From the NCBI GenBank assembly GCA_046597065.1, contig JBKJLI010000002.1, positions 1 through 50,070 on the forward strand: a stretch of DNA of 50,070 nucleotides, written 5' to 3'. Every line of letters starts with the position of its first letter. The first letter of the stretch is position 1. A program made the position numbers and the translations under genes. This DNA comes from Candidatus Saccharimonadia bacterium. GTDB taxonomy: Bacteria; Patescibacteriota; Saccharimonadia; UBA4664; SCTI01. The notes beneath the pieces are model-generated. The model was not told where the DNA came from and did no database searches. It saw nothing but the letters and a program-made list of their open reading frames with translations. This document shows positions 1-47,740 of the stretch, one piece after another.

Positions 1-102
1 GTTGGGAATGATCAATACAGCTAGAATGCCGATGATCACGATGACGATCAAGAGCTCAAGCAGTGTAAAGCCAGACTCTCTTTTTAGTAGTTTATGTGAC
101 AT
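1..102 (-). CDS. Type IV pilin-like protein, N-terminal part (runs off the window; not in ORF track)
   Basis: Manual translation MSHKLLKRESG/FTLLELLIVIVIIGILAVLIIPN is a class III prepilin signal (G/FTLxE). Strong SD AGGAGGTGA at 111-119 on the - strand. Confidence 0.92.
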   Translation of the reverse strand, partial: MSHKLLKRESGFTLLELLIVIVIIGILAVLIIPN

Positions 103-232
103 GTGAGTGCTCACCTCCTAATATTTTGCGTTTCTTGAAATAATTTTTACTTATGTATAAAGCATAAGCTTTATTATCGATAATTATGGGCGCCTTGCTA
201 TAACCTGTCAAGCTCGAGTTGGCCAGAGTAGA

Positions 233-1453
233 TTAGACGGCGTTACTAAGCGCCGATAATGGTCCATAAACTGAGATAACAATAAATCCGACCATTCCAC
301 CGAGAACCAGTATTAAAATAGGCTCGATGATTGAAGTGATACCGCCAACCACTGTATCAACCTCTTTCTCGTAAAATGTTGCTAGCTTAACTAAAATTTC
401 ATCAAGTTTACCGGTTTCTTCGCCGACTGCCACCATTTGGCTGACAATAGGTGGGAAAACGTGTAATTGTTTTAACGGCTCCGAAACGGTTTTACCGGCT
501 TTGACGTCTCGGGCAATGACTTCGATAGCTTCTTGAAACACAGAGTTTCCAAGTGCGGTAGAAGTTGATTTGAGTGCATCTAAAATTGATATTCCAGATG
601 CCATTAAAGAACCGAACGTGCGCGCAAACCTAGCTACATTAACTTTCATAATAATTGGACCAAACACAGGCAGGCGTAAAAGTAAGGTATCGAGCAGGTG
701 CTTGCCCGGTTTGGTGCGGAAATAGCGGGTTATAAAAATGCCAGCAACAAATAAAGCTCCAGCTATAAAAATACCGTAGTTTGTCAGCACGTGGCTGATG
801 TTTAACATAAGCTTGGTGTACCAGGGTAAATCGCTGCCAAGCCCCTCAAAAATACTGGCCAGCTTTGGCACGATCACGGTCATCAAGAAAACAAATACGC
901 CTAATGTTACGGTCGTAATCACACCTGGGTAGATCATAGCGCTGCGAACCTTTCCAACAATCTCGGCATCTTTTTCTTGCTGAACCGCCAGGCGTTCCAG
1001 GACATCATCTAGCAGGCCGCCAGTTTCTCCAGCTTTAACCATATTTATATAGATGGGCGAAAAAATATCAGGATGTTCAGCCAGGGCGGCGCTTAGAGTT
1101 GCGCCTCCTTCAACTTTTTTGGCGGCAGCGGCTAAGGCGGCTTTGAGTTTTTTGTTAGTAGTTTGATCTTGAAGAATCGACAACGATTGCACAATCGGTA
1201 CACCGGCATTAATCATAGTGGCAAACTGTCGAGAAAAGATAACTTTATCGGTTAGCTTAACCTTGCCGCCAATTTTAAAGCGACTAAGATTAAAGCCACC
1301 GCCCTTTGCCGCTGTAGCCTGATTTTTAATTAGGATTGGCGTAAGACTCTTTTCGATCAAGCTGGCCGCAGCCGCCGATTGATCACTGGCAGTTAGGCTG
1401 CCTTTATGGATAGTGCCGCTTTTATCGCGAGCGGTATAAGTAAAGCTAGCCAT
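233..1453 (-). CDS. pilC: Type IV pilus platform protein PilC (GspF family)
   Basis: FSRQFATMINAGVP, GETGG.LD, AMIYP, GEETGKLD, IEP motifs; adjacent to pilB and a pilin. Confidence 0.95.
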   Translation of the reverse strand: MASFTYTARDKSGTIHKGSLTASDQSAAAASLIEKSLTPILIKNQATAAKGGGFNLSRFKIGGKVKLTDKVIFSRQFATMINAGVPIVQSLSILQDQTTNKKLKAALAAAAKKVEGGATLSAALAEHPDIFSPIYINMVKAGETGGLLDDVLERLAVQQEKDAEIVGKVRSAMIYPGVITTVTLGVFVFLMTVIVPKLASIFEGLGSDLPWYTKLMLNISHVLTNYGIFIAGALFVAGIFITRYFRTKPGKHLLDTLLLRLPVFGPIIMKVNVARFARTFGSLMASGISILDALKSTSTALGNSVFQEAIEVIARDVKAGKTVSEPLKQLHVFPPIVSQMVAVGEETGKLDEILVKLATFYEKEVDTVVGGITSIIEPILILVLGGMVGFIVISVYGPLSALSNAV

Positions 1454-28079: not shown

Positions 28080-28126
28080 TTTAAGAAGTAGTCGAAAATG
28101 AATACGCTTATGTATAATAGATTCAG

Positions 28127-30219: not shown

Positions 30220-30224
30220 AGCTC

Positions 30225-31352
30225 ATGGTTATAAAATGGAGTGCGCTTTTTTTTGGCGCGGCCCTTGTTATAGTGGCGCCATCGGTCTTAAAAGCAGCCA
30301 GTGGCGACGAGCTTAATATTGCCCCAGCACTGCAAGAGGTGATTGTTACTGGCACCGACATAACCAAGCCGGTAACTGTTACAGTTGCGAACAGCGGTCC
30401 TAGTAGTCGTACCTACAAGTTGAGCGTGGTCGATTTTGGGAGTTTAGGGGAAAGTGGGGGTCTGGCTTTCTTGGGTCAGACTGCAAATGAGAGCGAGCAT
30501 CGATTTGGCTTGTCGCCGTGGGTACAAGCTCCCGCCACCGTAAATGTTGCCGCTCGCAGTAGCAGTGACGTAGTGATTACGATTGAAAATCGCACTACAC
30601 TTTCGCCCGGTGGCCACTATGCGGCGGTTATTGTTACTCCAGTGGATCAGGCCTCAAAGCCGAAACAAGTACAACTTCAGCAGCAGCTCGCCTCTTTGAT
30701 ACTTTTAAGGAAAACTGGTGGGGAGCAGTATCGTTTTGGTGTAAGCGGCCAATCATTTAACAGCAACTGGCTGAAGCTACCAGGCTCGATAAATTTAAGA
30801 GTGGCTAACAGCGGCAATGTCCATGTAGTGCCAAGAGGACTGATACGGCTGGTTGATCCAAGAGGGGAGGTTGTATATCGGGCGACGATTAATCAGGGTT
30901 CAAGCTTTATCTTACCCGGGAGCGTTCGCAACTTTAACGTCACTTTAATGAAGCAGAAAAACGCCCTGTGGCCGGGGAAGTACTTACTGCTAACGCAGAC
31001 ACGCAATGACGGCAGTGATAGCGTTCAAACCATCAAAAAAGAGATTTGGTATCTGGGCTACATTGGCGTGATTGCGATAGTCGCGTTAGTGGGGCTAGCT
31101 CTGCTTGCAATAGTGGCAATCTGGTTGATCCGAAAGCGGAAACCACGGCCAAAGATACCTCCAAAAACTTTTAATAAAAATGTCACCGAGAAGGTAGAAG
31201 AGGAATTGCCTCCAGAAGTCCCCGATACTGTAGTTACACAAAAACCGGTTGTTAAAAAGCCCTCCCCAATGCGAAAACAAAAGGTTTTTAAGCCTACCGA
31301 TGGAATGCGCCGGACAACTAAAAAAAGCGCCTCTGAGAAGCCAAAAAAGTAG
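30225..31352 (+). CDS. DUF916/DUF3324-like protein, divergent paralog C, with long K/P-rich tail
   Basis: PGGHYAAV, ANSGNVHVVPRG, ILPGSVR, WPGKY, TM helix. Confidence 0.7.
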   Translation: MVIKWSALFFGAALVIVAPSVLKAASGDELNIAPALQEVIVTGTDITKPVTVTVANSGPSSRTYKLSVVDFGSLGESGGLAFLGQTANESEHRFGLSPWVQAPATVNVAARSSSDVVITIENRTTLSPGGHYAAVIVTPVDQASKPKQVQLQQQLASLILLRKTGGEQYRFGVSGQSFNSNWLKLPGSINLRVANSGNVHVVPRGLIRLVDPRGEVVYRATINQGSSFILPGSVRNFNVTLMKQKNALWPGKYLLLTQTRNDGSDSVQTIKKEIWYLGYIGVIAIVALVGLALLAIVAIWLIRKRKPRPKIPPKTFNKNVTEKVEEELPPEVPDTVVTQKPVVKKPSPMRKQKVFKPTDGMRRTTKKSASEKPKK

Positions 31353-31469: not shown

Positions 31470-34400
31470 GTGTTGTGGAGAAATATACAAAAAGTGAGAA
31501 TCAAAATAAAGATTCCAAATCTAAAACAGCCAAAACCGCTGACCTTAGTATCGATACTGGTGCTTGGCTTTTTGGCGTCGATTGCACTTATTTCATTACC
31601 GGCAAAGGCTGCCACCGGGATCAACAAACAGATCAACTTTCAGGGTAAAGTCGTTAATGCCAACGGTACCAACGTGACCGATGGTGCCTACAACTTCGAC
31701 TTCAAAATTTATACGGTTGCCAGTGGTGGAGCGGCAATTTGGAGCGAGCTGTCAAAATCAACCACGGTTACTAGCGGTGTATTCCAGACCAGCTTGGGCT
31801 CGGCTACTACCCTTCCAGGTTCGATCGACTTTAATACCGACAACATTTATTTAGGAATAACTTTTAATGGTGACGCTGCCGGTGAAATGACTCCGCGCGT
31901 GCAGTTTAGTGCCGTACCGCAGGCCTTTAACTCCGAGAAAGTGGGCGGAATTTTGGCATCCGGTCTGGTACAACTTACTCCCAGCGGTCAGCAAACTGGA
32001 ACGATTAATATTAGTGGCTCACTAACCTCGGCCAGTACGTTGCAGGGTACCAGTGCTACTCTGACTGGCGGTAACTCATTGACGCTGGGTACCGCTAGTT
32101 CATTAACTGGTGCCATAATTTTAAACAACGCTACTAATACCAACACCGTTACGCTGCAAAGCGGGGTGTCGGGTAGCTCTTATACGCTGACAATGCCGAC
32201 CACCGCTCCCAGCGTGAGCCAGTGTTTGCAGAGCGATAGCGTGACGGCTAGTCAGCTTAAGTTTGGTAGTTGCGCCGGCGGTTCTACGACACTTCAAAAC
32301 GCCTATGACGCCGCTAGTGGTAATATTATTACCACAAGTAACGCCAAGGATGTAACATTTACGCTGGCCGACACCGCGACCGATAGTAACTTTATTGTAA
32401 ATGTGGCCACCGGCTCGACCAGTAAGTTTGCCATCCAGCAGAACGGATCGGACGTTTTGAGCGTGAGCGCTACCGGCGCGGTATTAAGCAAAAACTCAGC
32501 CAACTCCGCAACCGCGTTCCAGATTCAAAACAGCAGCGGCGCCAACGTGGCGCGCGTTGATACCAGTGGTGCCAATGCCAACAACTTGGTGACAAACCCA
32601 AGCTTTGAAAACAACTCCACAACCGGCTGGACCGGCAACGGTGGCTGTACTTTAACGGCGGTTACAAGTGCCACTACCGGCCCGTTTAATGGTCAGTACA
32701 GCGGCCAGTGTAGCAACACTGCAACTATAGGTGCCGAGTATCGGTTTGTAACCGGCGCGTTGACTGCTAGTACCGCTTATACCTTTAACTTTTATGCGAA
32801 GGCATCGGCTACTTCTGGTGCTTTCCTAAGTTTTGGGCACGTTGAGAACGGCGGAGCCGAGGATGTTGCTGGACTATCATTAACAACTCAAGCTGTCAGC
32901 ACCAGTGGCTGGACTCGTTACTCGTTGAGCTTTAAAACTGGTGCTACTTTGGCGTCTGGCGATTATCTCTACGTTAAGCAGACCGACGCAACCGCTCGCA
33001 GCGTCTGGCTAGATGGGGCCACTCTACAGACCGATGCTAACGGTGATGGTAACTATCGCGAAGGTAAGATTGCCCTGGGTGGCATCATTACCAGCCCAAC
33101 ACTTTTACAAAACGAGAGCAACTCAACTACTGCATTTCAGGTGCAAAATGCCGCCGGTGCAAGTGTGTTTACGATTGATACTACCGATAGCAACCTGCTG
33201 CCCAACCCAGGTGCTGAGGTAAGTGCGGCGGGTTGGTCGGCCAAGGGCAGCGGCACTATTATTCGCGATAGCTCTCAGCAAAAGTTTGGCATTGCAGCCT
33301 TTAAGGTGGTTACCACGGCTACGGCTAACGATGGCGCCCAGTACGCCGGCTTAAACCTGGCGATTGGAACCTACTCGATTGGCGTATCAATAAAAAACAA
33401 TGCCACCGCTTTTGGCGCGGGTGCCTTGCAAGTTGGTATTACCAACACCGGTGGTGACAATGTGTGTACACTTGCGCCTGCAGTGAGTGCAACTATTCCT
33501 ACAAGTACCGGTTGGACACGATTTACCTGTTCGGTAACTATTGCCACAACGGTTGGTACAGCCTTTTATGTTAAGCAAACCGAGGCAGTAGCGCACACAA
33601 TTTGGGTTGATGGCATAGAGCTGGACTCTGGAGCAACCTTGACTCCCTATGGGGTTGGCTCGCTGTCATTTAATGCGGTAATTAAAACACCGTTAACTCT
33701 TCTAAACCAGTCGGATTCGACCAGTGCACTGGCGGTCTATAACGCGGCCGGCCTACAGTTACTTGGCGTCGATACCTTGAATGCAGGAGTTAACATTGCG
33801 ACTGGCGCGGTAGCCGGTACTGTAACCATCGGCAATACTACTGGTGCCTCGGCGGTGACAATCCAGGGTGGAACTGGCGCTATTAATATTGGTACACAGG
33901 CAATTGCGGATACCATTACGATTGGAAACTCCACTGGCGCCACCTCGGTGGTGATTAACAACGGCACGGGCGCGCTAAACCTTGGTACCAACGCTATCGC
34001 TCACACCGTCACCATCGGCAACACTACCGGCGCATCGGCTTTAACCTTACAGGCTGGAACCGGTAACGTTTCGATAACCGGAGCAGCCGCTACAACCTTT
34101 ACCATCGGGCCAGCTGCCGGTACCGGAGCCATTACCGTCGGACCATCAACCGCTTCGCAGACTATCAACATTGGCAATACGGCTAAAGGTGCAGGTAGCG
34201 CAAATACAATTAACATCGGCGCTACAAATAACGCCTCTACTGGTACTACCGCGATTGCGATAGGTAGCAGCAACACTAGTACAGGTGTTACCACCGTAAC
34301 CATAAAGGCCGGTACCACCGCTACTTCGGCCGGCCCCTCAGTAACTTTGGGTGCAACCGCTAGTACCACCGCGGTTTGTTCAAGCTTGGCTGCGGCCACC

Positions 34401-35369
34401 GCCCCAACGGCTGGTACCGCCTATGAGCTGCGCGACTGTAGCGGTACCCCAGCGGCCGACTTTGCCGAAAACTATCCGGTTGCAAGCGGAGTCGAGTATG
34501 GCGACGTTGTGGCAATTGGCACAAAAATGATCAACACCTACGATGTTACCAACGGCAACATCGATTGGACCAAGATTAAGGGTAGAATCACTCAGTTGGT
34601 AAAAAGCAGCCAGGGCTATCAGTCGGGTGCACTGGGAATTGTTTCAGAAAACCAGAGCGATTTTACAACTGCTGGTTATAACATTAAGTCTGGTGACAAC
34701 CCCAAGACGGTGGCACTTGTAGGGCGCGTACCGGTTAAGGTCACCACCGAAAATGGCGCAATTGAACCCGGAGACTTTTTGGCGAGTTCTGATACGCGAC
34801 CTGGCTACGCCATGAAGGCAACCGGAGCCGGTTACATTATTGGCCAGGCGCTTGAAGCATTTACCGACGCCAAACCCGGAAAAGTAATGGTGTTTGCTCG
34901 TTCTGGCTATAGTCCTGGGCCAAATCCGAGCCAGAATCTTCAGCATGGAAGTTTTGGCGATCTAATATCTAAGGGTACTTTGACGGCCAGCAACATCAAG
35001 GTAAGCGGCCTGCTTGAGGTTCAAGACATTGTGGTAAATGGCCACTTTATTACAGCCGGCGGACAGCCAACCGCTTTGTTGCTTGGTTCTGCCGGTGTTG
35101 GCGCAAACATATCAATTAGTGGCACAGATACCATCGGCACCATTAGTATTACTACCGGAACCAAGACTACGCCTGGCGAGCTTGCAAAGATCGTGTTTAG
35201 TAAAAGCTATACTCAGCCGCCAAAGGTGCTATTAAGCCCGTCTAACGAGGCCGCATCAAAAGCTCAGTTTTATCGCGGCACAACTGGAAAGGCCGATTTT
35301 ACCCTCAACCTATCTTCGCAGGCAAGCGCCAAAACTAACTATAAGTTCGATTACTTTATCGGGCAGTAA
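31470..35369 (+). CDS. Large secreted tail-fibre-like adhesin
   Basis: Signal (AKA/A); INFQGK..EMTPR..VPQA domain; two CBM4/9-like modules (NLVTNPSFE, NLLPNPGAE); IG.TTGA repeats; peptidase-G2-like ADFAE..GRVPVKV..PG.AMKA..IIGQALE. Start uncertain. Confidence 0.75.
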   Translation: MLWRNIQKVRIKIKIPNLKQPKPLTLVSILVLGFLASIALISLPAKAATGINKQINFQGKVVNANGTNVTDGAYNFDFKIYTVASGGAAIWSELSKSTTVTSGVFQTSLGSATTLPGSIDFNTDNIYLGITFNGDAAGEMTPRVQFSAVPQAFNSEKVGGILASGLVQLTPSGQQTGTINISGSLTSASTLQGTSATLTGGNSLTLGTASSLTGAIILNNATNTNTVTLQSGVSGSSYTLTMPTTAPSVSQCLQSDSVTASQLKFGSCAGGSTTLQNAYDAASGNIITTSNAKDVTFTLADTATDSNFIVNVATGSTSKFAIQQNGSDVLSVSATGAVLSKNSANSATAFQIQNSSGANVARVDTSGANANNLVTNPSFENNSTTGWTGNGGCTLTAVTSATTGPFNGQYSGQCSNTATIGAEYRFVTGALTASTAYTFNFYAKASATSGAFLSFGHVENGGAEDVAGLSLTTQAVSTSGWTRYSLSFKTGATLASGDYLYVKQTDATARSVWLDGATLQTDANGDGNYREGKIALGGIITSPTLLQNESNSTTAFQVQNAAGASVFTIDTTDSNLLPNPGAEVSAAGWSAKGSGTIIRDSSQQKFGIAAFKVVTTATANDGAQYAGLNLAIGTYSIGVSIKNNATAFGAGALQVGITNTGGDNVCTLAPAVSATIPTSTGWTRFTCSVTIATTVGTAFYVKQTEAVAHTIWVDGIELDSGATLTPYGVGSLSFNAVIKTPLTLLNQSDSTSALAVYNAAGLQLLGVDTLNAGVNIATGAVAGTVTIGNTTGASAVTIQGGTGAINIGTQAIADTITIGNSTGATSVVINNGTGALNLGTNAIAHTVTIGNTTGASALTLQAGTGNVSITGAAATTFTIGPAAGTGAITVGPSTASQTINIGNTAKGAGSANTINIGATNNASTGTTAIAIGSSNTSTGVTTVTIKAGTTATSAGPSVTLGATASTTAVCSSLAAATAPTAGTAYELRDCSGTPAADFAENYPVASGVEYGDVVAIGTKMINTYDVTNGNIDWTKIKGRITQLVKSSQGYQSGALGIVSENQSDFTTAGYNIKSGDNPKTVALVGRVPVKVTTENGAIEPGDFLASSDTRPGYAMKATGAGYIIGQALEAFTDAKPGKVMVFARSGYSPGPNPSQNLQHGSFGDLISKGTLTASNIKVSGLLEVQDIVVNGHFITAGGQPTALLLGSAGVGANISISGTDTIGTISITTGTKTTPGELAKIVFSKSYTQPPKVLLSPSNEAASKAQFYRGTTGKADFTLNLSSQASAKTNYKFDYFIGQ

Positions 35370-35393: not shown

Positions 35394-35771
35394 CTAAACT
35401 TCTTCGGACAGTAAAAGTTGAAGATGGTCGGTTACGTCTGTCGGTGTAACGTTAATCTTAATCATAAAGCTGTCGGCACCCATGGCCATGACTCGGTGTT
35501 CAACCTCTTCATCGCCCATGTTTGTAAGTACAATAACTTTTGGTTTAGGGTGGGGGTGAGGGGGCATTGATTCAAGAATCTTAAAACCGTCAACTTTTGG
35601 CAGCATTAGGTCTAGCAGTACGACATGAGGCTTAAACTCTTTTATTAGGGCAATCCCGGCCTCGCCGTCTACCGCTACACCCACCTCATAGCCGTTGCTT
35701 TCAAGATGCAAACGGTAAAGTTCGCAAATAGCCTCTTCGTCTTCAATAAGGGCGATTTTAAGATTAGACAT
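35394..35771 (-). CDS. Single-domain response regulator (receiver only)
   Basis: IALIEDE, VLLDLMLPKVDG, LTN, FMIK. Confidence 0.92.
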   Translation of the reverse strand: MSNLKIALIEDEEAICELYRLHLESNGYEVGVAVDGEAGIALIKEFKPHVVLLDLMLPKVDGFKILESMPPHPHPKPKVIVLTNMGDEEVEHRVMAMGADSFMIKINVTPTDVTDHLQLLLSEEV

Positions 35772-35896: not shown

Positions 35897-36388
35897 ATGT
35901 CGTCAAGCATGATTAACCGGCGTAAGTCCACTGTGGCTGCCGCCGTGCTGGCGGCAACTGTTTTGCTACTGGTTTTTCACCAGTTGATCTTCGATGTGGT
36001 TGTTCATTTCTGGCATCGTGCCGAGAGCTACCACGTTAACCCGCTGATCTTCGTATTCCTGCTGCTAGCGACCTTTTACCACTACTACAAAGGGTGGTAC
36101 CAGATTGCGATCGGCATCTACAGAAGGGATCGGAAGTTGCTGGTGCGTGGTGTGATCTTGAATCGGACAGTTTGGGCAATTCCCTATCTTTATGTGCTGA
36201 TCTTCGGCTATGGCTACCCCTGGTGGGTGCTGGCTGGGGTGATCGGCTGGATCGTAGTTGCAATGGCTTCGTTTATTCGCAACTACCGTCGCCCAGAATA
36301 CCTGCACAAGATGAACGCCTCGTGGTTCGGCCGGATAATTGAGCGTCATCTGAACAAGGCCAAGCCAAAGGTGGGTGATGTCGAGTGA
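35897..36388 (+). CDS. Membrane protein of unknown function
   Basis: About four hydrophobic segments; GAGGA SD; GTGA overlap with the next gene. Confidence 0.75.
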   Translation: MSSSMINRRKSTVAAAVLAATVLLLVFHQLIFDVVVHFWHRAESYHVNPLIFVFLLLATFYHYYKGWYQIAIGIYRRDRKLLVRGVILNRTVWAIPYLYVLIFGYGYPWWVLAGVIGWIVVAMASFIRNYRRPEYLHKMNASWFGRIIERHLNKAKPKVGDVE

Positions 36389-37050
36389 GCCATTTCAATT
36401 TCTGGAGGCTCCAGGGCTGGCTATACGACGCTTTGTTTGTACTGGTGCCTCATCGGCGCCTGGTCGAAGAGGTAGCCCGCACAACTGGTAAGCATAACGA
36501 CCTAATACTGGACGCCGGCTGCGGAAGCGGCCGGCTAAGTCAGTGGTCGGCATCTCGCGTGGTCGGCATCGATTTTTCGGAATCGATGATTAGAGCCGCT
36601 CGCAGACGTAAGCGTGGGTCGGTTTTTAAGGCTGACTTGAATGCCCCGCTACCATTCAGCTCCCACACGTTTGATTACGTTGTGTCGCTGAATGTGCTAT
36701 ATGCATTGCCTCGTCCTGGGGTGACGCTTATGGAACTAGCTCGAGTGTTGAACTATGGCGGTGAGCTAGTGGTTGCAACTCCGACCACATCCAAGCTAAC
36801 ACCACTAGTTGTTGAACACTTCAAGACTGCCTCGCCATGGCAGCTGGTGATTTCGTTCATCAATCTACCGCGCCTGATTGCCTGGTGTATCAACCTGGGT
36901 ATTAGGGGTTGGTTCGATAACAGCCGGTTCACCTGGTTGTCAGAAGCCGAGCTTACGGAGGCGGTTAAGGCAGCCGGTCTAAAGGTCATTTCGGTCGAGC
37001 CTTGCTACGCAGGGATCGACATCATGCTGGTTGCTCGAAAGGAGGGGTAA
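36385..37050 (+). CDS. Class I SAM-dependent methyltransferase
   Basis: ILDAGCGSG, GIDFS..M, ADL..LPF...FD.V, E.ARVL..GG.L. Confidence 0.92.
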   Translation: MSHFNFWRLQGWLYDALFVLVPHRRLVEEVARTTGKHNDLILDAGCGSGRLSQWSASRVVGIDFSESMIRAARRRKRGSVFKADLNAPLPFSSHTFDYVVSLNVLYALPRPGVTLMELARVLNYGGELVVATPTTSKLTPLVVEHFKTASPWQLVISFINLPRLIAWCINLGIRGWFDNSRFTWLSEAELTEAVKAAGLKVISVEPCYAGIDIMLVARKEG

Positions 37051-37652
37051 TGCCCGACTGGACGTTTGAGCGGGTTGATCCCCGTGAACTGCCGTTTGAC
37101 CTAGTATCAGCCTCTTTCAGGGACTGGTTTCATCGAGAGCCGTGGCTCGAAGTGGCGCGCTGTCCAAGTTGCTCTCCCCAGGGTGACTTTGGCTCAGCCG
37201 GCCGTTTTACAGATTTCGGTAACGGAGTCTGTCCGGCCTGCGGTAGTGAGCTCCAGGAGTACTGGACCGATCAGCGAGTAGCTCAGTATTTTCTCGATTC
37301 CATGGACAATGAAGGCCTAGGCCTCTACGTCATGAAAGAGGCGGGAGATATCGTGGCCTGGGCTTGGGTTTACAGCATCAGCTGCGTTCCCGAATTGGCC
37401 GACCTGGGTCCGAATGGTACCTACGTAGACACATTCGGATTTGTTGTCAACGGTCAGGCACCATTCATGGATCTCTTCGGGTGGGGGCACCTCGAAGAAC
37501 AGAAGCGAGGTGCAGAGTACTTTGTCTACCGCACGCATGTTGATGCCGAGTACATTCGGCAGGTAACCGAAGGTTTTGGTTACCGCTTCTTGCGTCGGTC
37601 AACGGTTGAAGTAGACCGTGAGTACCACATCTACGTTCCGGAGCCGCTGTAG
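37050..37652 (+). CDS. GNAT-like protein with inserted CxxC/CxxC zinc ribbon
   Basis: SD AAGGAGG and TAATG coupling; F..EPW.E, CPSC..CPAC, IVAWAW.Y, YVDTFG, V.RT, FGY. Confidence 0.6.
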   Translation: MPDWTFERVDPRELPFDLVSASFRDWFHREPWLEVARCPSCSPQGDFGSAGRFTDFGNGVCPACGSELQEYWTDQRVAQYFLDSMDNEGLGLYVMKEAGDIVAWAWVYSISCVPELADLGPNGTYVDTFGFVVNGQAPFMDLFGWGHLEEQKRGAEYFVYRTHVDAEYIRQVTEGFGYRFLRRSTVEVDREYHIYVPEPL

Positions 37653-37660
37653 GCATCGGC

Positions 37661-37695
37661 GGGGTGGGTTGGCTATCAGCCGACCCACCCCTTTT
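37661..37695 (+). terminator. Intrinsic terminator
   Basis: GGGGTGGGTTGGCT-ATC-AGCCGACCCACCCC-TTTT. Confidence 0.85.
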
Positions 37696-37744
37696 CATTT
37701 AACATAAGCGGTATTATAATATGTACAACAATAAAGAAACAAAA

Positions 37745-38356
37745 ATGCAACCAACCGACTACAGTATTGAGTTTTCTCACATCTATCTTAATGAAACCTT
37801 TAGCCACGAGCACCAAAAAAGTATCAGTGTGCTCAAAGAGTTTATTGACGAACTGGATGGTAATGATACCTACTCGCTTAACGTTTTAATCGATGACTAT
37901 AACGCTACCGACGAAGTCCTTGATATTAAAGACTTCAAGCAGCAGTTAGAAGATGCTGGAGTGATGCCAGACTACTTAGCCTATGAAGCACGCTTAGTAG
38001 ATTACTCTTCTACGTTGTTATCGCACATGAAGGAAAATAAGTTGAAGCGAAGCTACATCCGCTACATCGAGAACAAGGGCATAATTCCATGCTCATTTAT
38101 GATTGCAACCTGGTATCTTTTGCGTTTGGGGGCGTTGCCGCTTAATCCCGAGACCCTTGTTTATGAAAAGAACGGCGGCCATTCCAAAGCATTCGTTGCT
38201 AAAAATATCGTCAGCATTCTTCCCGATCGATTTAGAGGAGTTGAACATAAGGCAGAACTGATTATTCGAGCAACTCCGTTCGCTGCCATGAACGCACAAA
38301 TCGAGCGAATATATTATGATGGTGTAGAGGAGAGAGCACTAGCTGGTGTCCATTAG
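37745..38356 (+). CDS. Hypothetical cytoplasmic enzyme, motif pattern reminiscent of the SCO2522 family
   Basis: SIEFSHIY, LIDDY, DYLAYE, C...IATWYLLRLG, SILPDRF..VEH. Family resemblance is from memory. ATG 37721 abuts a TATAAT box, so 37745 is preferred. Confidence 0.6.
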   Translation: MQPTDYSIEFSHIYLNETFSHEHQKSISVLKEFIDELDGNDTYSLNVLIDDYNATDEVLDIKDFKQQLEDAGVMPDYLAYEARLVDYSSTLLSHMKENKLKRSYIRYIENKGIIPCSFMIATWYLLRLGALPLNPETLVYEKNGGHSKAFVAKNIVSILPDRFRGVEHKAELIIRATPFAAMNAQIERIYYDGVEERALAGVH

Positions 38357-40529
38357 ACTTATAAGCTATATTTTTGCCTTTGTCGTTATGGCAATTTTGG
38401 GGGCTTTTGTTTATGCCAACAATAAGAACGGACGCATCAATAAAACTTTCTTCTTATTTACAATTTCGGCCGACATCTGGATTTTCTCGTTATTAATTGC
38501 CGACAACACGACCTCACTGGCATTAATTGATCTCGGTGCCAGACTGGCTTTTGTAAGTTCAACGGCAACCCTATGCATGCTTGTAATTTTTACCCTAGCA
38601 CTGGCCTACCCTAAGCGCAAAAGCACTCGGACAACCCTGGCATTTATTGTTCCGGCCACTCTTTTAATTGCAACCGCTCCAACCAGTTTAGCAATTCAAA
38701 GCGTATCGGTGCAGGATTACGGGGCCGGTGTTAGTGGAGGTATAGCATATGATATCTTTTCGCTGTATGCGGGCGTTTGCCTGCTTGCAGCTTTAATAAC
38801 TCTGGCTAAGGGAATAAAGCGTGGTGATGCCAGGACTAAAACCCAGCTAACCTACCTAGGTTTAGGTCTTGCGCTAACAGGCGTTACAGCAATACTGACT
38901 AATTTAGTATTTGTATCGTTTGCCTATCTTGGCCCACCTTCATACCTCTTCCTTGCTGGTTTCACCGCTTTTGCAGTAGTAAAACACCGACTCTTTAACG
39001 TGAGGGCAGTGGTTGCCCGATCGATTGCATATGTTCTACTACTACTGACTTTAGCGGGTTCTTATGGTGCCACCCTGTTTGCAGTATCCAACTTTCTTTT
39101 CCCCGAAAGCAAAAGTAGCACGGCTCAGAGCGTTGTGTATGTAGTACTTGCTGTTTTGCTGGCTTTTACCTTCCAGCCCCTCAAGAGCTTCTTCGAAAAG
39201 TTAACCGATCGTATTTTCTTTCGTGATCGTTATGATTCCCAGGTGGTGCTTAACGAGATTGGGCAGATTTTGGTGGCCGAGTTTAAGCTTGATCGTTTGT
39301 TGCGCAAAACCCTGGCCAGAATCAGCCAAGATCTAAAAATTGGCAACAGTCTGTTCTATGTTTTCGAAGAAGATGAGATTTATAAGGTGGAGCATTACGG
39401 TGCAGTGGCTCATAAGCAAATAACCGCCAAAGAGTTGCAAACTCTTCGTCATCGCACGATTGTGGCCGATGAGCTGAATGAGGGCCATGAAAAGCAGTTG
39501 ATGGAAGAGTACGACTTTAGGGTGGTAATGCATTTGCGCACTAAGGAAGAGTTTGTGGGTTACTTGCTGCTTGGCGACAAGCTAAGTGGCGACATTTATA
39601 CTCCGCAAGACATCGAGGTGCTTGAAATTTTGTCGCAAGAACTGGCGGTGGCCATAAGTAACGCCAAGGCTTACGAAGAGATTGCCGAGTTTAATGCTAC
39701 CCTCCAGGGTAAGGTAGATGATGCCACAAAGCGTTTGCGCAGTGCCAACATTCATTTAAAAGAACTTGATCAAGCCAAGGATGAGTTTATTTCGATGGCC
39801 TCGCACCAGCTGCGCACTCCGCTAACAACCATTAAGGGTTATCTGTCTATGCTCCAAGAAGGTGATGCTGGCAAGATGAAGCCGGAACAACTGGAGTTCA
39901 TAAACTACGCCTATGCCGGCTCTCAGCGCATGGTCAACTTAATCTCTGATTTACTCAACGTGTCGCGAATGTCGGCAGGTAAGTTCTTAATTGAAAAGGC
40001 GCCAATTGACCTAACTCAGGTAACGGCCGAAGAGGTGCAGCAGCTGCAAAGTCACGCTGTGTCAAAAAATCTTAAACTGGCGTATGAACCACCAAAACAA
40101 AAACTAGACCTGGTTAGCTTAGATGAAAACAAGACCAGGCAGGTAATTATGAACTTTATTGATAACGCCGTTTACTATACCAAAGAGGGTAGTGTAACGG
40201 TTAGCTTGAATAAGGTCGGAAGCAATGTAGAGTTGCGGGTTAAAGACACCGGCATAGGTGTGCCGCCGGACGCTCAAAAGAAGCTGTTTACCAAATTCTA
40301 TCGTGCTGGCAATGCCCAAACCGTACGCCCCGACGGCACTGGCTTGGGGCTTTACTTAGCCAAGCGGGTGGTAGAGGATCAGGGTGGTACAATAATCTTT
40401 GAAACTACTGAAGGCAAAGGGAGCACTTTTGGCTTCTCTTTGCCAATGAAAGCAGGAAAGGTTGATATAGATGTCGAGAGTAAGCAACCCCCAAGACAGC
40501 TCACAGGATCGGGCAGTGGCAGCCAGTAA
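38346..40529 (+). CDS. Sensor histidine kinase with HisKA_7TM-like N-terminus and GAF-like domain
   Basis: Many TM helices, A.VKHRLF, LG.K.SGD.Y...D..VL, ASHQLRTPL, NFIDNA, DTGIG, GTGLGL. Confidence 0.92.
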   Translation: MSIRLISYIFAFVVMAILGAFVYANNKNGRINKTFFLFTISADIWIFSLLIADNTTSLALIDLGARLAFVSSTATLCMLVIFTLALAYPKRKSTRTTLAFIVPATLLIATAPTSLAIQSVSVQDYGAGVSGGIAYDIFSLYAGVCLLAALITLAKGIKRGDARTKTQLTYLGLGLALTGVTAILTNLVFVSFAYLGPPSYLFLAGFTAFAVVKHRLFNVRAVVARSIAYVLLLLTLAGSYGATLFAVSNFLFPESKSSTAQSVVYVVLAVLLAFTFQPLKSFFEKLTDRIFFRDRYDSQVVLNEIGQILVAEFKLDRLLRKTLARISQDLKIGNSLFYVFEEDEIYKVEHYGAVAHKQITAKELQTLRHRTIVADELNEGHEKQLMEEYDFRVVMHLRTKEEFVGYLLLGDKLSGDIYTPQDIEVLEILSQELAVAISNAKAYEEIAEFNATLQGKVDDATKRLRSANIHLKELDQAKDEFISMASHQLRTPLTTIKGYLSMLQEGDAGKMKPEQLEFINYAYAGSQRMVNLISDLLNVSRMSAGKFLIEKAPIDLTQVTAEEVQQLQSHAVSKNLKLAYEPPKQKLDLVSLDENKTRQVIMNFIDNAVYYTKEGSVTVSLNKVGSNVELRVKDTGIGVPPDAQKKLFTKFYRAGNAQTVRPDGTGLGLYLAKRVVEDQGGTIIFETTEGKGSTFGFSLPMKAGKVDIDVESKQPPRQLTGSGSGSQ

Positions 40530-40902
40530 CGGTAAAACTATATTTTTGGCCGAAGACGATCCGTTTATTTCACGGATGTACAACGTTAAGTTGGAAAGCG
40601 CCGGTTTTAAGATTGTACTGGCTAGCAACGGCCGCGACGCCTATGAGCAGATCAAGGCAGTTAAACCGGATTTAATATTACTTGATATAAACATGCCGGA
40701 AATGACTGGCTTCGAAGTGGTTAAAGCCCTTCAAACTGATGGCGAAACCGATCTCATAAAAAAGATCACGGTTTTAACCAACTCGGCCAACCCCGCCGAT
40801 CATCAGTTGGCCGAAAGCCTGGGCATAGATTATGTAGTAAAAGCCGATATGACACCTCATGATGTACTAGACAAAATAAACCTCAAGCTGGGCTTAAAGT
40901 AG
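40471..40902 (+). CDS. Single-domain response regulator (start may be slightly downstream)
   Basis: IFLAEDD, LLDINMPEMTG, LTN, YVVK. Confidence 0.9.
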   Translation: MSRVSNPQDSSQDRAVAASNGKTIFLAEDDPFISRMYNVKLESAGFKIVLASNGRDAYEQIKAVKPDLILLDINMPEMTGFEVVKALQTDGETDLIKKITVLTNSANPADHQLAESLGIDYVVKADMTPHDVLDKINLKLGLK

Positions 40903-43230: not shown

Positions 43231-44880
43231 TTGGTGAATTGGAGCATAACCATTTCCACTAAACTCGCAGTAAAATCGAAACTCCACCTACTGCCGCTTA
43301 TCGCTATCGCGTTGGTAGCAGCGGCTTTTGCCATTAAGGTGGTGTTTTTTTCGAATGCCGGCGGTGCGGTGGTTTGCGATAAGGTTGCCTCACGCACCGG
43401 CTCAGATTCAAATGCTGGCACTGAAGCCAGCCCATATAAATCGGCCCAAAAGGTAGCCGATAATTTAACGGCCGGTCAGACGGGATGTTTGCATGCCGGC
43501 GTATACACCGAGCTAGCCAACGGTGGATACGTTTTGCGCCCGCTGCATGGCGGGACCTCTACAACCAGCCAAATTATTATTCGCAGTTATCCTAATGATC
43601 CAAGTGGCCGCGCCACACTACAGGGACCCATTGATATTCAGTTAAACTCAAACTTTGTGACTTTATCCGATCTTAATCTTGATGGTTCAACTTATGGTAG
43701 TAACTCAATGGAGGTATACGCCAGCAATTTTAGCTTGCTAAGAAATGATATTACCAATAAACATCTTGGGGGTAGCTGCATATATTTGGGATCAGATGGA
43801 TCATATCCTCAAACCGGCCCAGCCACGAATGTATTAATTAAAGACAATATCATTCATGAGTGTGGTAAGCCCGCCAATGGGAATCAAGATCATTCAATAT
43901 ATGCGCACTCACCTCGCGGCGGCCAGATAACCGAAAACATCTTTTACGACCCAACCGGCTTTCAGATTCAGTTCTGGACAGACAGCCAAGGTCTGCAGAT
44001 TGATCACAACATATTTAACGGCGGATCGGTAGTCGGCGGAATTGTCTTTGGAGGGGGAGATAACTTGCTCTCGAATAATAATTCTGTAAACAACAACATT
44101 ATTACCAATGCTGCCCAAAAAGGAATAACCTATTGCTGGGCCGGTTCGGCGGCTGCTAACTGCGCGGCCGGACCTTCGGGCATTGGAAATGTGGCCAACA
44201 ACAATTGCCTATATGGCAACATTGGTGGTGATATCTCCGCCCAAATCGGATTTACGGCGAGTGGTAACTTAACATCTACAAATCCACTATATGTAAATTC
44301 CGCTTCTCATGATTTTACCCTTCAGACCGGCAGCCCATGCTTGGCAAAGACTGGTTATGACATTGCCGTAGCGGTTAATGCTGCCATTGCCGCAGCCGGC
44401 TTAAGTGGCGGCTCGAACTCGCTACCCCCAGCTGCGCCAACTGGCCTAACCGCAACAGCAAGCCCAGGGCAGGTTGTTCTTAACTGGACAGTAAGCCCAA
44501 TAGATGAGGCCGTTACTCGCTACAACATATACCGATTGGATACTGCAGGAGTTTGGGGTTATACGGCCAACGGTACAACCACAACTTTTACGAATGCATC
44601 TGGTATTACCAATGGTACTCAATATTGTTACACCATTAATGCGGTCAATTCAGCGGGGCCAAGTCCTCAAAGCACCCAGGCTTGTGCTACGCCAATGGCT
44701 ACAACCAAGATTGGTGACCTAAATGGCGATAACTCAGTTAACATTTTTGACTTAAGCATCTTGTTAACCAACTTTGGCAAAACTCCGGCACAATCAACTA
44801 ATCCTGCCGCCGATCTAAATGCTAACAACTTTATTGATATTTACGACCTATCAATTCTACTGAGTCATTATGGAACCTAG
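43231..44880 (+). CDS. Secreted right-handed beta-helix protein with Fn3 and C-terminal dockerin-like domain
   Basis: GSDSNAGT.ASPY, N-rich repeats, PAAPTGL..W..Y.IYR..Y.Y.INAVN, two GDLN.D..V.I.DLSILL repeats. Start uncertain. Confidence 0.85.
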   Translation: MVNWSITISTKLAVKSKLHLLPLIAIALVAAAFAIKVVFFSNAGGAVVCDKVASRTGSDSNAGTEASPYKSAQKVADNLTAGQTGCLHAGVYTELANGGYVLRPLHGGTSTTSQIIIRSYPNDPSGRATLQGPIDIQLNSNFVTLSDLNLDGSTYGSNSMEVYASNFSLLRNDITNKHLGGSCIYLGSDGSYPQTGPATNVLIKDNIIHECGKPANGNQDHSIYAHSPRGGQITENIFYDPTGFQIQFWTDSQGLQIDHNIFNGGSVVGGIVFGGGDNLLSNNNSVNNNIITNAAQKGITYCWAGSAAANCAAGPSGIGNVANNNCLYGNIGGDISAQIGFTASGNLTSTNPLYVNSASHDFTLQTGSPCLAKTGYDIAVAVNAAIAAAGLSGGSNSLPPAAPTGLTATASPGQVVLNWTVSPIDEAVTRYNIYRLDTAGVWGYTANGTTTTFTNASGITNGTQYCYTINAVNSAGPSPQSTQACATPMATTKIGDLNGDNSVNIFDLSILLTNFGKTPAQSTNPAADLNANNFIDIYDLSILLSHYGT

Positions 44881-44896
44881 GGGAACAGAAATATAG

Positions 44897-44937
44897 AACC
44901 CCCTACAGCAAGAAAAGTAATCCTGCTATAGGGGGCT
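44897..44937 (-). terminator. Hairpin terminator between convergent genes
   Basis: - strand AGCCCCCTATAGCAGGA..TCTTGCTGTAGGGGGTT. Confidence 0.7.
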
Positions 44938-44941
44938 ATTG

Positions 44942-45367
44942 TCAGCTTCCGCTGACGATGAACTTCGAGACCGTGGCAGAGCCAACAGGCATCGAGATTC
45001 TGACCGTCTGGTGGTTGTCGTCGAAGGCGGCGACCAGTGTGGGCTGGTAGAAGCGTTCGAGGCACAACATGCGGCTGGTCTGCGGTGTGTTGTACGGGTT
45101 GTAAAACCCAACATCGGCCTGGTTGCCGCCGAGAATGCTGAGGTTGATGACCTCGCCGGGATCGAGCGAGTTGAGGCCGAAGCTGAAGCTGAAGCAGATC
45201 TGGTTGTAGGTCTGCTTGTTTCCCGGGAAGACCACCCGCACAGAGGCGGTCTGGGTGGGCGACAACAGGAAGCTGCTGGGCTGGGTCACCACGTTTGCGT
45301 TGGCGGCCGGAGCAACGAGTGCGCCGAAGGCAAGCATCGTTACGACCATGGTGAGGAACTTGCTCAT
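44942..45367 (-). CDS. GC-rich secreted hypothetical protein
   Basis: AGGAGG SD, promoter TTGACA-17-TAATAT (45435-45407), signal peptide ending AANA, two Cys. Confidence 0.8.
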   Translation of the reverse strand: MSKFLTMVVTMLAFGALVAPAANANVVTQPSSFLLSPTQTASVRVVFPGNKQTYNQICFSFSFGLNSLDPGEVINLSILGGNQADVGFYNPYNTPQTSRMLCLERFYQPTLVAAFDDNHQTVRISMPVGSATVSKFIVSGS

Positions 45368-45783
45368 GATGGACCTCCTGGGTCCTAGGAGTTGGCAATG
45401 TTGCATATATTAACATAAGAACTAACTATTGTCAATACTAGCTAATATGTATAGAATTTGTTGCATAGTATCTAGTACTCCGATATCCAAGATTATAAGA
45501 ATAAGAATAGTAGTGACATAGACGTGCCATATTATAGTTCAAAATACGAAAAGAGCCTCCAGAAAGCAGAAGATTTTTCAGTTCTGATTGAGGGCTAGGT
45601 GCCTATGCGAGGAGTTTCGTTTTCGCCCGTACTCAATATCTTCGTGAGTTGAGGCTGATTGATGATAGGAAGCTGGGCCTCTAGCGAGGAATTCTGGCTC
45701 GAATCCTTGATGTGCAGCGCCCGTTCATAAGGGCTATAATATACATAAAGTCTCAATTTTAGCTCGGAGCGACTAATATTAAA

Positions 45784-47076
45784 ATGTTAGCGAGAAATCG
45801 CAGAAGCCTACTACAAGCATCAGTCTTATTAATATTAGCGATAATTTCAGGCATTTATATTTATACTCGAGGTCATGCGGCGGGGTGTACAGTTACGTTA
45901 AGTCCTGGTGTAAATGTGGGCGCGGCTTTTAACTCACCATCATTAACCGCCGGACAAACCCTATGCCTTCATACCGGCAATTACGGTGGGCCAACATCTG
46001 CGATCGCGCTAACTAATGGTGGCACATCGGGCAGCCCGATTACCTTAACGACGGTACCGGGCGAGGCACCTGCAACCATTGAGGGTGGATTTACAGTTGG
46101 CAATAATAGTACTTCTGGGCTGCGAAACAATATTACCGTTAGCCATATTAACTTTAAGTTAAATCTAACCGACAACAATAGAGTCAATGCACAATACGGC
46201 TGTAGCTCAACCAGAGTGCTGGGGGTTACATTAACCGGCAGTAATATCATTTTTGAATATAATGATGTGTCTGAGGCAAGCGTATCTCCAGCATTTCGTG
46301 ATACCCCATTGGGTGCAAATTTTACGGGCGTTAGAAGTAGCAACGTAATTATCCGTAATAATAAAATTCACGATTTTGGCGCTTGCGACCACTTTGATCA
46401 TGGAATTTACTTTGACTATGTCGATAATGGGCAGATTTATGGTAACTGGATTTGGAATGGTGGTTGTGCGTATGGTTTAGGAGGCGACCCAACAAAGGGT
46501 TGTGGAGCCGGCATTCAGCTATATAGTGATCCAATTGGCACCCAAGTTTATGGCAACGTTATTGATGGCGCCGGTATTGGTATGTATTTATCTAAAAACC
46601 ACAATAATGTTTATAACAATGTCATCATGAACATCAAAGGAATGTACCGTACGGACGGCGTTTTTGAATCGCCTTACACCTATTCTGGCTACGCCGGTGA
46701 CGCGACTAATACGTTTGTTAATAATAACTATTTTAATGCCGGTCCGCTTTGCAGTGATTGTAGCGCCACGTCTACGGTAGGTGGACAGCAGAGCAACATT
46801 TCTTCTAACCCCATGTTTACCGATCCCGCAGCTCATAATTACACACTTAAAGTCGGGTCCCCCATCACGGCTTATTCTGGCATGTGGAATGGTGATTTAA
46901 GCAATGGAGTCGTTGCGAAGGTGGGGGACATCAACGGCGACAATGTAGTTAATATTCTTGATTTAAGCATTTTACTTTCGGCATGGAACACAAATAACTC
47001 AAGTTCAGACCTAAACAAAGACGGGTCGGTAGGTATTTTTGATCTATCCATCCTACTTAGTCATTATGGAAACTAG
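45784..47076 (+). CDS. Secreted right-handed beta-helix protein with C-terminal dockerin-like domain
   Basis: RGHAA signal, TLCLHTGNY, IIRNNKIHD, DHGIY, NPMFTD...NYTL..GSP, duplicated dockerin repeat. Confidence 0.85.
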   Translation: MLARNRRSLLQASVLLILAIISGIYIYTRGHAAGCTVTLSPGVNVGAAFNSPSLTAGQTLCLHTGNYGGPTSAIALTNGGTSGSPITLTTVPGEAPATIEGGFTVGNNSTSGLRNNITVSHINFKLNLTDNNRVNAQYGCSSTRVLGVTLTGSNIIFEYNDVSEASVSPAFRDTPLGANFTGVRSSNVIIRNNKIHDFGACDHFDHGIYFDYVDNGQIYGNWIWNGGCAYGLGGDPTKGCGAGIQLYSDPIGTQVYGNVIDGAGIGMYLSKNHNNVYNNVIMNIKGMYRTDGVFESPYTYSGYAGDATNTFVNNNYFNAGPLCSDCSATSTVGGQQSNISSNPMFTDPAAHNYTLKVGSPITAYSGMWNGDLSNGVVAKVGDINGDNVVNILDLSILLSAWNTNNSSSDLNKDGSVGIFDLSILLSHYGN

Positions 47077-47077
47077 T

Positions 47078-47590
47078 TTATGTTTTAGCTGTCTTGTCTG
47101 TTGGTTTAGATTTAATCTCATTTACTAATTTTGATGCCAAAGTCTCTGATGTGGTTTCATAATTACCGCTTTCAAGAATAATTTTAAGCGAATTTAGATC
47201 CGATTTATATCTATTCTCGCTTATTGATTGCAGGGCGGGCTGGGCCACCGAAAAAACTCCTCGGGTATTGATATGATTATCTATCCTTAAATTGCATCCA
47301 GTTTTAGTTGGAATGATTGTATAAGTTGCATCGAAGGTTATTGGACCGCGATGGCTAACCGCGCTAAAGCTGCTATGCCCATCATTCTTGACGATCACTG
47401 CAGAAAGGTCAAAAGACCGTCCTAGCCCAGCGGCATGAAAATAAATCGTGCTGCCTGGGTTAAATCCATCTGTTGCGGTAAGTTCACTAACACCAGCCTG
47501 CCATAAAGGGTAATTATCTAGCTTCATGAGGAAGCCAAAAACGTCTTCCTTTGAGACTAGTAGATCAATTGAGTGAGATGCGACAACCAT
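47078..47590 (-). CDS. SRPBCC/polyketide-cyclase-like protein
   Basis: E.VF.FL....NYP.W, GP, DL..LK.ILES. Confidence 0.75.
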   Translation of the reverse strand: MVVASHSIDLLVSKEDVFGFLMKLDNYPLWQAGVSELTATDGFNPGSTIYFHAAGLGRSFDLSAVIVKNDGHSSFSAVSHRGPITFDATYTIIPTKTGCNLRIDNHINTRGVFSVAQPALQSISENRYKSDLNSLKIILESGNYETTSETLASKLVNEIKSKPTDKTAKT

Positions 47591-47593
47591 AAA

Positions 47594-47740
47594 CTATACG
47601 CGGTTACGGCGTGTAACCATATCATAGATAAACACTATAGCCGCTATAACCAGTAAAATGTGAATAAAAGATCCACCAACTTGGCCCATAAATCCTAACA
47701 ACCAAAGAACTAATAGTACTCCTAGAATTGTATACAACAT
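47594..47740 (-). CDS. 48-aa lmo0937-family (DUF5670-like) membrane peptide (not in ORF track)
   Basis: MLYTILGVLLVLWLLGFMGQVGGSFIHILLVIAAIVFIYDMVTRRNRV; AGGAG upstream. Confidence 0.85.
   Translation of the reverse strand: MLYTILGVLLVLWLLGFMGQVGGSFIHILLVIAAIVFIYDMVTRRNRV

Follow-up and report, generated by a model that had tools for sequence, protein, structure and literature searches.

The stretch analysed here, hereafter the window, comprises 50,070 nt of contig JBKJLI010000002.1 from a Candidatus Saccharimonadia bacterium whose genome (716 kb on three contigs) is 97% complete. At 37745..38356 (+) it encodes a predicted soluble protein of 203 aa, here called X, that directly precedes a sensor histidine kinase of 727 aa (38346..40529, +; GTG start) and overlaps it by 11 nt at the X stop. 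A receiver-only response regulator of 143 aa without an output domain follows (40471..40902, +; Pfam Response_reg, E = 1e-18), its open reading frame (ORF) being overlapped by the kinase stop. Read from the sequence, a GGAGAG stretch lies 5′ of the kinase GTG at 38346, and an alternative receiver start (GTG 40516) stands behind an AGGA. The initial annotation had described just such an order—a protein of about 200 aa overlapping the start of a multi-transmembrane kinase, then a receiver—and the ORFs, the 11-nt overlap, and the Pfam domains all agree with it.

The ORF of X runs from 37721 to 38356 (211 aa). We consider ATG 37745 the better start because the –10 box of a promoter-like site (TTTTCA-17-TATAAT, 37692..37720, +) overlaps the ATG at 37721; the protein called in a public collection (P0001) likewise is the 203-aa form. 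The site 5′ of X is a consensus match only, 11 such sites being found in the region against 10.2 expected. Immediately before it lies an intrinsic-terminator-like hairpin (37661..37691, +; 14 pairs, ten of them G–C, and a T run), which ends a tightly overlapping upstream unit of three genes. With hairpin and promoter-like site directly upstream of X, the genes for X, kinase, and receiver look like a separate unit. The upstream unit consists of W_163, a small membrane protein without a Pfam or NCBIfam family (35897..36388, +), a class I S-adenosylmethionine (SAM)-dependent methyltransferase recognized by Pfam (Methyltransf_11, E = 9e-19) and NCBIfam (36385..37050, +), whose start overlaps the W_163 stop, and W_216 (ORF 37002..37652, +), a protein of no known family with a CxxC...CxxC pattern, whose likely start, ATG 37050, overlaps the methyltransferase stop. 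Divergent from this cassette, Pfam identifies a second receiver-only protein (35394..35771, –).

The translation of X contains the five motifs quoted in the initial annotation (E9xxH12xY14, L48IDDY52, D76YLAxE81, C116xxxxAxWxLxRLG129, and S157ILPxRFxxVEH168), and an alignment of 126 sequences established that their residues are conserved in the family and not there by chance: no sequence departs from E9, D50, or E81, and H12, Y14, Y52, C116, W123, R127, L128, G129, L159, and E167 are conserved to at least 90%. Among representatives of 50%-identity clusters, 377 relatives were found at E ≤1e-3, and the conserved carboxylates and other residues are kept in all 12 fused relatives examined. Members that carry an organism label come from candidate phyla radiation (CPR) bacteria, DPANN archaea, and one metagenome-assembled genome (MAG) of Omnitrophota, the latter a fused form; the nearest named homologue is from a Saccharimonadales MAG. 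In precomputed annotation, the newer Pfam family PF28097 (PF28097.1) is given for P0001 and for seven of nine other first matches in the public collection. A Pfam scan of X at E values up to 10 returned only Xol-1_N at 0.19, a PDB sequence search with the family profile gave spurious PPR-repeat matches only, and the X homologue P0007 had one match in the ESM Atlas, at 0.76, below the lead threshold. Our literature search found no publication on the family, which is so far catalogued only as PF28097 and as a distant relative of SCO2522.

An AlphaFold2 model of X built with the 126-sequence alignment (pLDDT 94.6, pTM 0.90) has five main strands (residues 4–14, 43–50, 77–80, 152–160, and 186–191) with helices interleaved. 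When this model was compared with the PDB by Foldseek, arginyl-tRNA synthetase (ArgRS; 2zue_A) came out on top (E = 4.6e-4, probability 1.00), followed by GluRS, GlnRS, MetRS, TrpRS, pantothenate synthetase, and NMNAT. A concordant picture came from VIA-align, run on 48,161 representative chains, with catalytic domains of the class I aminoacyl-tRNA synthetase (aaRS) type only among the best 50 matches listed. There, the ArgRS of Pyrococcus horikoshii (PhArgRS; 2zuf_A, residues 117–423, 195 residues aligned at a root-mean-square deviation of 3.0) and that of yeast both scored 15.9, ahead of GluRS (about 12), GluQRS and CysRS (11.8 each), MetRS (11.5), MshC (10.6), TyrRS (9.3), and TrpRS (8.5). 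The predicted structure thus strongly supports a Rossmann-type catalytic fold of class I aaRS for X, closest in shape to ArgRS, and bears out the HUP/class I aaRS-like fold suggested from the motifs.

Residues were mapped onto the PhArgRS sequence from the ungapped start of the alignment (model residue 2 = chain residue 117). In this register, E9 coincides with E124 of the PhArgRS strand-1 motif, the place of D118 in Escherichia coli ArgRS, H23 with H138, the last His of H135-M-G-H138, and D50/D51 come within one residue of D166/D167. PMC3956977 describes D118 of the E. coli enzyme as binding guanidinium together with Y313 and D317, and its H132, the last His of HIGH, as contacting the main chain of the substrate. 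In the model, the conserved E9, D50, D51, D76, E81, E167, H12, Y14, Y52, C116, W123, and R127 all sit at the C-termini of strands or the N-termini of helices. By order of secondary structure elements, the ArgRS helix whose Tyr and Asp bind arginine corresponds to the helix C116–R127 of X. Since this helix 116–127 (P-C-S...W...R-L-G) carries conserved residues other than those of the ArgRS Tyr/Asp helix, the amino-acid pocket appears to have been rebuilt in X; arginine as its substrate may serve as a lead but is not a finding. F163/E167 had been considered as counterparts of the ArgRS Tyr/Asp pair and were rejected, as the same element order places that helix opposite residues 116–127.

X differs from ArgRS (class Ia, Pfam tRNA-synt_1d) by a series of losses. 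The N-terminal add-on domain, the anticodon-binding domain, KMSKS, and some 110 residues of ArgRS insertions are absent, all 203 aa being taken up by the catalytic core. The chain stops 12 residues beyond strand 5, immediately ahead of where KMSKS would follow: residues 1..202 align with 101..356 of 3fnr, whose KMSKR lies at about 359–363 under an assumed numbering offset. HIGH is reduced to a single His that is not invariant, residues 20–23 reading S-H-E-H with only H23 aligned to PhArgRS H138 and replaced by Q or N in six of 12 fused relatives. As a separate observation, the genome's own ArgRS is encoded elsewhere (L063:1177-2802, contig 2, about 239.4–241.0 kb); it has T-L-G-N at the place of H-I-G-H in Campylobacter jejuni ArgRS, and hence neither HIGH His, retains KMSKR, and reaches only 38 bits with the Pfam ArgRS model, with which its relatives score low too.

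The reading that we favour, albeit tentatively and as something short of probable, takes X for a small-molecule enzyme that descends from an aaRS, works without ATP, possibly depends on aminoacyl-tRNA, and is coupled to a membrane sensor. X might instead still adenylate an amino acid and join it to an acceptor in the manner of MshC or GluQRS, both of which figure among the structural matches. We regard such an ATP-dependent ligase as highly improbable, for X has no KMSKS-bearing segment at all, the place of HIGH is acidic with D/E16, E17, and E22 conserved, and the residual His is so often Q or N in the fused relatives. The argument for a small-molecule enzyme rather than a scaffold draws on five features: the aaRS core has lost its ATP and anticodon functions; a nucleophile-like Cys and a set of His, Tyr, Asp, and Glu residues are kept even in fusions; the fusion partners are amine-type methyltransferases, a GNAT, and a NadD-like domain; the neighbouring genes encode ThiF, AsnB, and a GNAT_L-like protein; and archaeal loci have transporters.

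The fusions also bear on the ancestry of X. With NCBIfam SCO2522_fam (NF040566), X aligns colinearly over two segments of the profile (positions 68–126 and 199–258; E = 2e-6), at 27.5 bits against a curated cut-off of 200 bits. Among 17 long members of the X family scanned, nine are X fused to a methyltransferase of the NNMT/PNMT/TEMT type, and four of five methyltransferase-fused relatives scanned match SCO2525_fam (E = 1e-38 to 1e-44); the GNAT and the NadD-like domain are the other fusions. According to bioRxiv 10.1101/2024.06.24.600410, SCO2522 and SCO2525 of Streptomyces share one operon, so that the fusions mirror the gene neighbourhood of the actinobacterial SCO2521–SCO2525 cluster and lend independent support to the likeness of X to SCO2522. 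X is shorter, however, than the 314-position SCO2522 model and stays below the cut-off, and counterparts of SCO2521, SCO2523, and SCO2524 were not detected near X. The resemblance to SCO2522 noted in the initial annotation therefore stands, weakly, as a colinear match backed by fusions, while full membership does not, and X is a remote relative of that family only. In the literature as far as it could be accessed, no publication was found under the term SCO2522, and only the operon and SCO2525 are mentioned. Three long proteins (L014:428-2449, L015:6542-8653, and P0140; 673–825 aa) match only the N-terminal half of X, and P0140 also carries a NadD-like nucleotidyltransferase domain.

Turning to the partner of X in the window, Pfam resolves the kinase into HisKA_7TM (residues 8–219, E = 1.5e-13), a weak GAF, HisKA (9.5e-19), and HATPase_c (2.3e-27). 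With a phospho-acceptor His in HisKA, HATPase_c, and the receiver, the components of a two-component system are present, and S486-H487 is invariant among seven X-linked kinases. It is the only HisKA_7TM kinase found in a scan of its own genome. To place X in other genomes, we scanned species genomes with one motif, [NSD]IEFAHIY, as a seed, which yielded 14 loci—a biased sample of the family—from seven CPR bacteria and seven archaea. The CPR loci belong to Berkelbacteria, Moranbacteria, two Saccharibacteria, CPR2, Paceibacterota, and a MAG that bears the title Bdellovibrionales and is assigned by the genome set to the phylum of the window; the archaeal ones are labelled Nanohalarchaeota, Aenigmatarchaeota, Nanoarchaeota, "archaeon", or Methanosarcinales.

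In all eight informative CPR loci, defined as those with at least 3 kb downstream of X and including related genomes that are not independent, a HisKA_7TM kinase is encoded on the same strand zero to three genes downstream of X, and the recurrent linkage foreseen from the window alone is thereby upheld. Five different gene orders occur (HK, kinase; Y, a partner protein treated below): X-HK in the window; Y-X-HK in L019, L021, and L020 (= L013), the last with a 41-nt overlap; X-Y-HK in L012 and L010, close relatives of each other; X-ThiF-W_216-like-HK in L016 of Berkelbacteria; and X-AsnB-Y fragment-HK in L018. Start/stop overlaps are seen in the window and L020, and the linked genes point the same way, their ends overlapping or lying close together. 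L017 (= L011) and L022, which end at or just after X, and L014 and L015, with the half-matching long proteins mentioned above, were left out of this count.

The linkage is one-sided, however: among 401 Patescibacteria genomes, HisKA_7TM kinases are found in 169 and X in seven, that of the window included, with no X in the other sampled genomes of its class. Orthologues of the window kinase occur in six X-less Saccharimonadia genomes (34–42% identity, E = 1e-130 to 1e-175), and a receiver-only gene lies near five of them (not in L065), as in the window; the window's second receiver (35394..35771) has its equivalent upstream of the orthologous kinase in seven of eight other Saccharimonadia loci. 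What varies is the content of the slot before the kinase. A pyruvoyl-dependent arginine decarboxylase (PvlArgDC) with a 439-aa FeeM-like/GNAT protein lies directly upstream of the kinase at L069:5143-6980, and a PvlArgDC with a 629-aa partner that has no Pfam match and shares its N-terminal region with the 439-aa protein at L064:6040-8428. ThiF with a protein of no known family (479 and 508 aa, mutually 35% identical) occurs at L066:5917-8600 and L068:3443-6241, a 374-aa unknown protein fills the slot in L067, and L065 has no obvious cassette. With slot content this variable, X appears as one of several enzyme cassettes in a fixed slot before a conserved membrane kinase. Of the dedicated synthase/receptor pair that the initial annotation envisaged, adjacency therefore holds (eight of eight loci), whereas exclusivity is weakened by the abundance of the kinase and by the other cassettes beside its orthologues.

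These data also bear on whether X and the kinase are functionally tied at all, given that the slot may simply be a hotspot for accessory cassettes in which X is a passenger. Related genomes carry different cassettes, the kinase abounds in genomes that lack X, the X of the window is nearest to that of Berkelbacteria, suggesting transfer, and sensor and cassette were not seen to co-vary: the seven-transmembrane (7TM) parts are 18–26% identical (kinase cores, 43–73%) and form no groups that follow cassette type, the two PvlArgDC loci sharing 22% and the window 20–21% with L019 and L021. Against a passenger role, the linkage extends over several CPR classes in different gene orders, the genes are co-directional with ends that overlap or nearly do so, and nearly all alternative cassettes are small-molecule enzymes as well. 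On balance we think a chance association very unlikely.

A further possibility is that X binds a ligand without catalysing anything and informs the kinase about an amino acid (such as arginine), an amine, or uncharged tRNA, following the same logic as the HisRS-like domain of GCN2. Such a co-sensor would be in keeping with the missing ATP motifs, the overlap of X with the kinase start, E9 at the guanidinium-binding position of ArgRS, and an arginine decarboxylase in the equivalent slot of two of the six X-less loci; a literature search on Saccharibacteria kinases and agmatine found nothing relevant. Archaeal members of the family lack a nearby kinase, though, X and the kinase are two or three genes apart in L016 and L018 and one gene apart in L012 and L010, the fusions are to enzymes and not to signalling domains, and the near-invariant Cys/His/Tyr/Asp/Glu set suggests chemistry, so that we deem a purely sensory role quite unlikely.

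A recurrent companion of X at the CPR loci is Y (about 390 aa), which combines a membrane N-terminus with a 240-aa C-terminal domain and is found beside X in L010, L012, L019, L020, and L021 and as fragments in L017 and L018. Its predicted fold is nearest to the GNAT_L decarboxylases that load polyketide synthases (PKS), not to Fem/MprF transferases; unlike the chain-initiation enzymes CurA, SxtA, and GphF, Y is a stand-alone protein with a membrane N-terminus and not a PKS module. One query of the window's genome did not find Y, in place of which the window has W_163, the methyltransferase, and W_216. W_163 faintly resembles the membrane N-terminus of Y (blastp E = 0.006 to residues 6–116 of Y in L020). 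W_216, present in three of 401 genomes and given zinc-ribbon hints only by Pfam, has one clear relative, encoded between X and the kinase in Berkelbacteria (L016:2273-2857, blastp E = 3e-16). A comparison of Y with W_216 by hhalign (1%) did not show W_216 to be Y-like, and the idea of a defence system was dropped when neither X, Y, and W_216 nor the fused forms gave anything in PADLOC.

A membrane-anchored partner invites the alternative that X and Y aminoacylate or acylate a membrane lipid or cell-wall precursor while the kinase monitors the state of the membrane. The membrane N-terminus of Y and the wholly membrane-embedded sensor of the kinase would suit such envelope modification, as would the surroundings: LPG_synthase_C, the domain of aminoacyl-tRNA-dependent lipid aminoacylation, is encoded at L019 and L064, a Mur ligase flanks the loci L019, L021, L064, and L069, and Pfam identifies a polysaccharide deacetylase gene just downstream in the window. 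Yet the fold predicted for Y points away from Fem/MprF, the NNMT-type methyltransferase fusions and the archaeal transporter neighbours better fit a soluble metabolite, and Y did not turn up in the window's genome in the query mentioned. We judge envelope modification unlikely, though the fixed placement before the sensor fits such a circuit equally well.

The phylogenetic pattern of X suggests that its cassette has been transferred between lineages. In a tree of 17 sequences, the X of the window is closest to that of Berkelbacteria (42% identity; support of the fork, 84/86) and not to other Saccharibacteria X. As a further observation, tandem a/b paralogues of X are found in DPANN archaea (L024, L027, L028, and L029) and in one Paceibacterota MAG (L022:3018-4332), whose 'a' copy groups with the archaeal 'a' copies (support 99/98), hinting at a transfer between CPR and DPANN. 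Within the archaeal pairs, C116 is retained in copy a and replaced by Thr in copy b. X occurs, with two or more matches per genome, in six of 42 genomes of the phylum to which one archaeal locus belongs, and a major facilitator superfamily (MFS) transporter adjoins X in four of seven archaeal loci, amounting to two lineages.

Taken as a small-molecule enzyme, X would be a descendant of a class I aaRS reduced to the catalytic core, having lost the ATP-handling HIGH and KMSKS motifs and every tRNA-anticodon module. It would keep a strongly conserved, very acidic pocket where class I enzymes have their active site, along the edge of the Rossmann sheet, together with a near-invariant Cys at a helix N-terminus, and could take an already activated aminoacyl group from aminoacyl-tRNA or bind a cationic amino acid or amine. 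The product may then be tailored by variable partners, namely Y as a membrane-anchored, GNAT_L-like acyl-CoA decarboxylase or acyltransferase, AsnB, ThiF, or a SAM methyltransferase. The cassette of CPR bacteria lies directly upstream of, and would often be translationally coupled to, the conserved 7TM kinase with its receiver-only partners. This kinase most plausibly senses the product, which would partition into the membrane, or a membrane change that the product causes; in DPANN archaea, a tandem X pair would be coupled to an MFS transporter instead. A sensed product acting within or at the membrane would be in line with the fixed place of X before a wholly membrane-embedded sensor and with the amine or acyl chemistry of the alternative cassettes, among them an arginine decarboxylase beside a protein resembling N-acyl-amino-acid synthases. 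Enzymatic activity, donor, product, and sensing by the kinase are what we infer from these arrangements.

The closest working analogy for how X could be fed is tRNA-dependent synthesis. Cyclodipeptide synthases (CDPS; PF16715), which resemble the class Ic enzymes TyrRS and TrpRS, use aminoacyl-tRNA, and their genes cluster with tailoring methyltransferases. Like X, they are small stand-alone Rossmann proteins of class I aaRS type without HIGH and KMSKS; they differ in that X is nearest to ArgRS, GluRS, and CysRS and has a conserved set of Cys, His, Asp, and Glu. Synthase genes paired with a multi-pass membrane kinase are known from quorum sensing (CqsA/CqsS and LuxM/LuxN), and in these, as here, the enzyme gene directly adjoins that of a kinase with an entirely membrane-embedded sensor; the X family is unrelated to the synthases, however, the kinase is far commoner than X, and the receivers lack an output domain. 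Compared by description only, the fungal arginine-containing cyclodipeptide synthases (RCDPS) AnkA and AvaA are tRNA-dependent, were once annotated as hypothetical, and have a Cys, DDxxE, and tyrosines among their key residues (PMC11610942); X in turn has a near-invariant Cys, a DD(Y) motif, a conserved Tyr, and a shape like that of ArgRS. RCDPS exceed 500 aa and are fungal, as against 203 aa for X.

Several findings weigh against an aaRS-derived synthase that feeds a sensor. The likeness to CDPS suggested in the initial annotation did not emerge from the comparisons: the nearest structures are ArgRS, GluRS, CysRS, and MetRS, CDPS chains are not among the best 50 VIA-align matches, and the Pfam CDPS model has no match to X, an own-genome scan with it matching elsewhere at E = 0.012. 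Profile–profile comparison (hhalign) of the X family with 24 Saccharibacteria ArgRS gave a probability of only 2–3%, so that the relation of X to ArgRS rests on its predicted fold, and the register of the structural alignment is uncertain in the second half. With a pI of 5.1 (family median, 6.1) and a net charge of –10, X is an acidic protein, a property unfavourable for tRNA binding. In the model, E9, D/E16, E17, E22, D50, D51, D76, E81, and E167 build a very acidic site into which a cationic substrate or a metal would fit well but tRNA poorly; a conserved basic stretch comprises K99, R102, and K/R113. To these add the strong terminator that parts X from the methyltransferase and W_216 genes in the window, the query that did not return Y, the ability of the kinase to do without X, the lack of any grouping of sensor domains by cassette, and the missing output domains of the receivers.

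Signalling in Patescibacteria is, in our assessment and with no search aimed at the point, poorly understood, and X is found in organisms with minimal biosynthesis. Stand-alone catalytic cores derived from aaRS are rare, and CDPS, RCDPS, MshC, and GluQRS all perform chemistry other than tRNA charging. In a more speculative version, which strikes us as rather unlikely, ultra-small symbionts (CPR bacteria and DPANN archaea) would use a minimal synthase, derived from ArgRS and independent of ATP, to divert charged tRNA, perhaps Arg-tRNA, to the making of a small amphiphilic signal, with the Saccharibacteria 7TM kinase as receptor. The interchangeable cassettes—X with its GNAT_L-like partner, arginine decarboxylase with a FeeM-like N-acyl synthase, or ThiF with an unknown protein—would then serve as signal dialects. 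Were this true, Patescibacteria would have a first circuit that resembles quorum sensing or senses the host, and small-molecule synthases that depend on tRNA would have arisen from aaRS a third time independently. The fixed position of X before the kinase, along with the alternative cassettes, offers an experimental handle on what these epibionts sense. Our analysis also links the uncharacterised actinobacterial SCO2521–2525 cluster to an aaRS-like fold.

The remainder of the window showed further features. Its DNA occurs in two soil-metagenome runs, one possibly its source, with no RNA run listed. Genes for T2SSF and T2SSE/MshEN, of type IV pilus-type machinery, stand at its start (236-3441), and a second, conventional two-component system with an OmpR-type regulator and a small HisKA/HATPase_c kinase is followed by ABC transporter genes (13921-15622). 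Upstream of the X locus, five consecutive ORFs of about 350–390 aa (25819-31349), mostly without a clear family and two with weak Fn3-like hints, precede a Thr/Ser/Gly/Ala-rich protein of 1299 aa with a CBM_4_9 domain (31470-35369); these are probably surface proteins. Beta-helix proteins, two with dockerin type I domains, are encoded at 43231-47073 and 48671-50068. The G+C content drops to 0.39–0.40 at 20001-22000, after a tRNA gene cluster (19826-20116), and at 46001-48000, compared with about 0.47 elsewhere.

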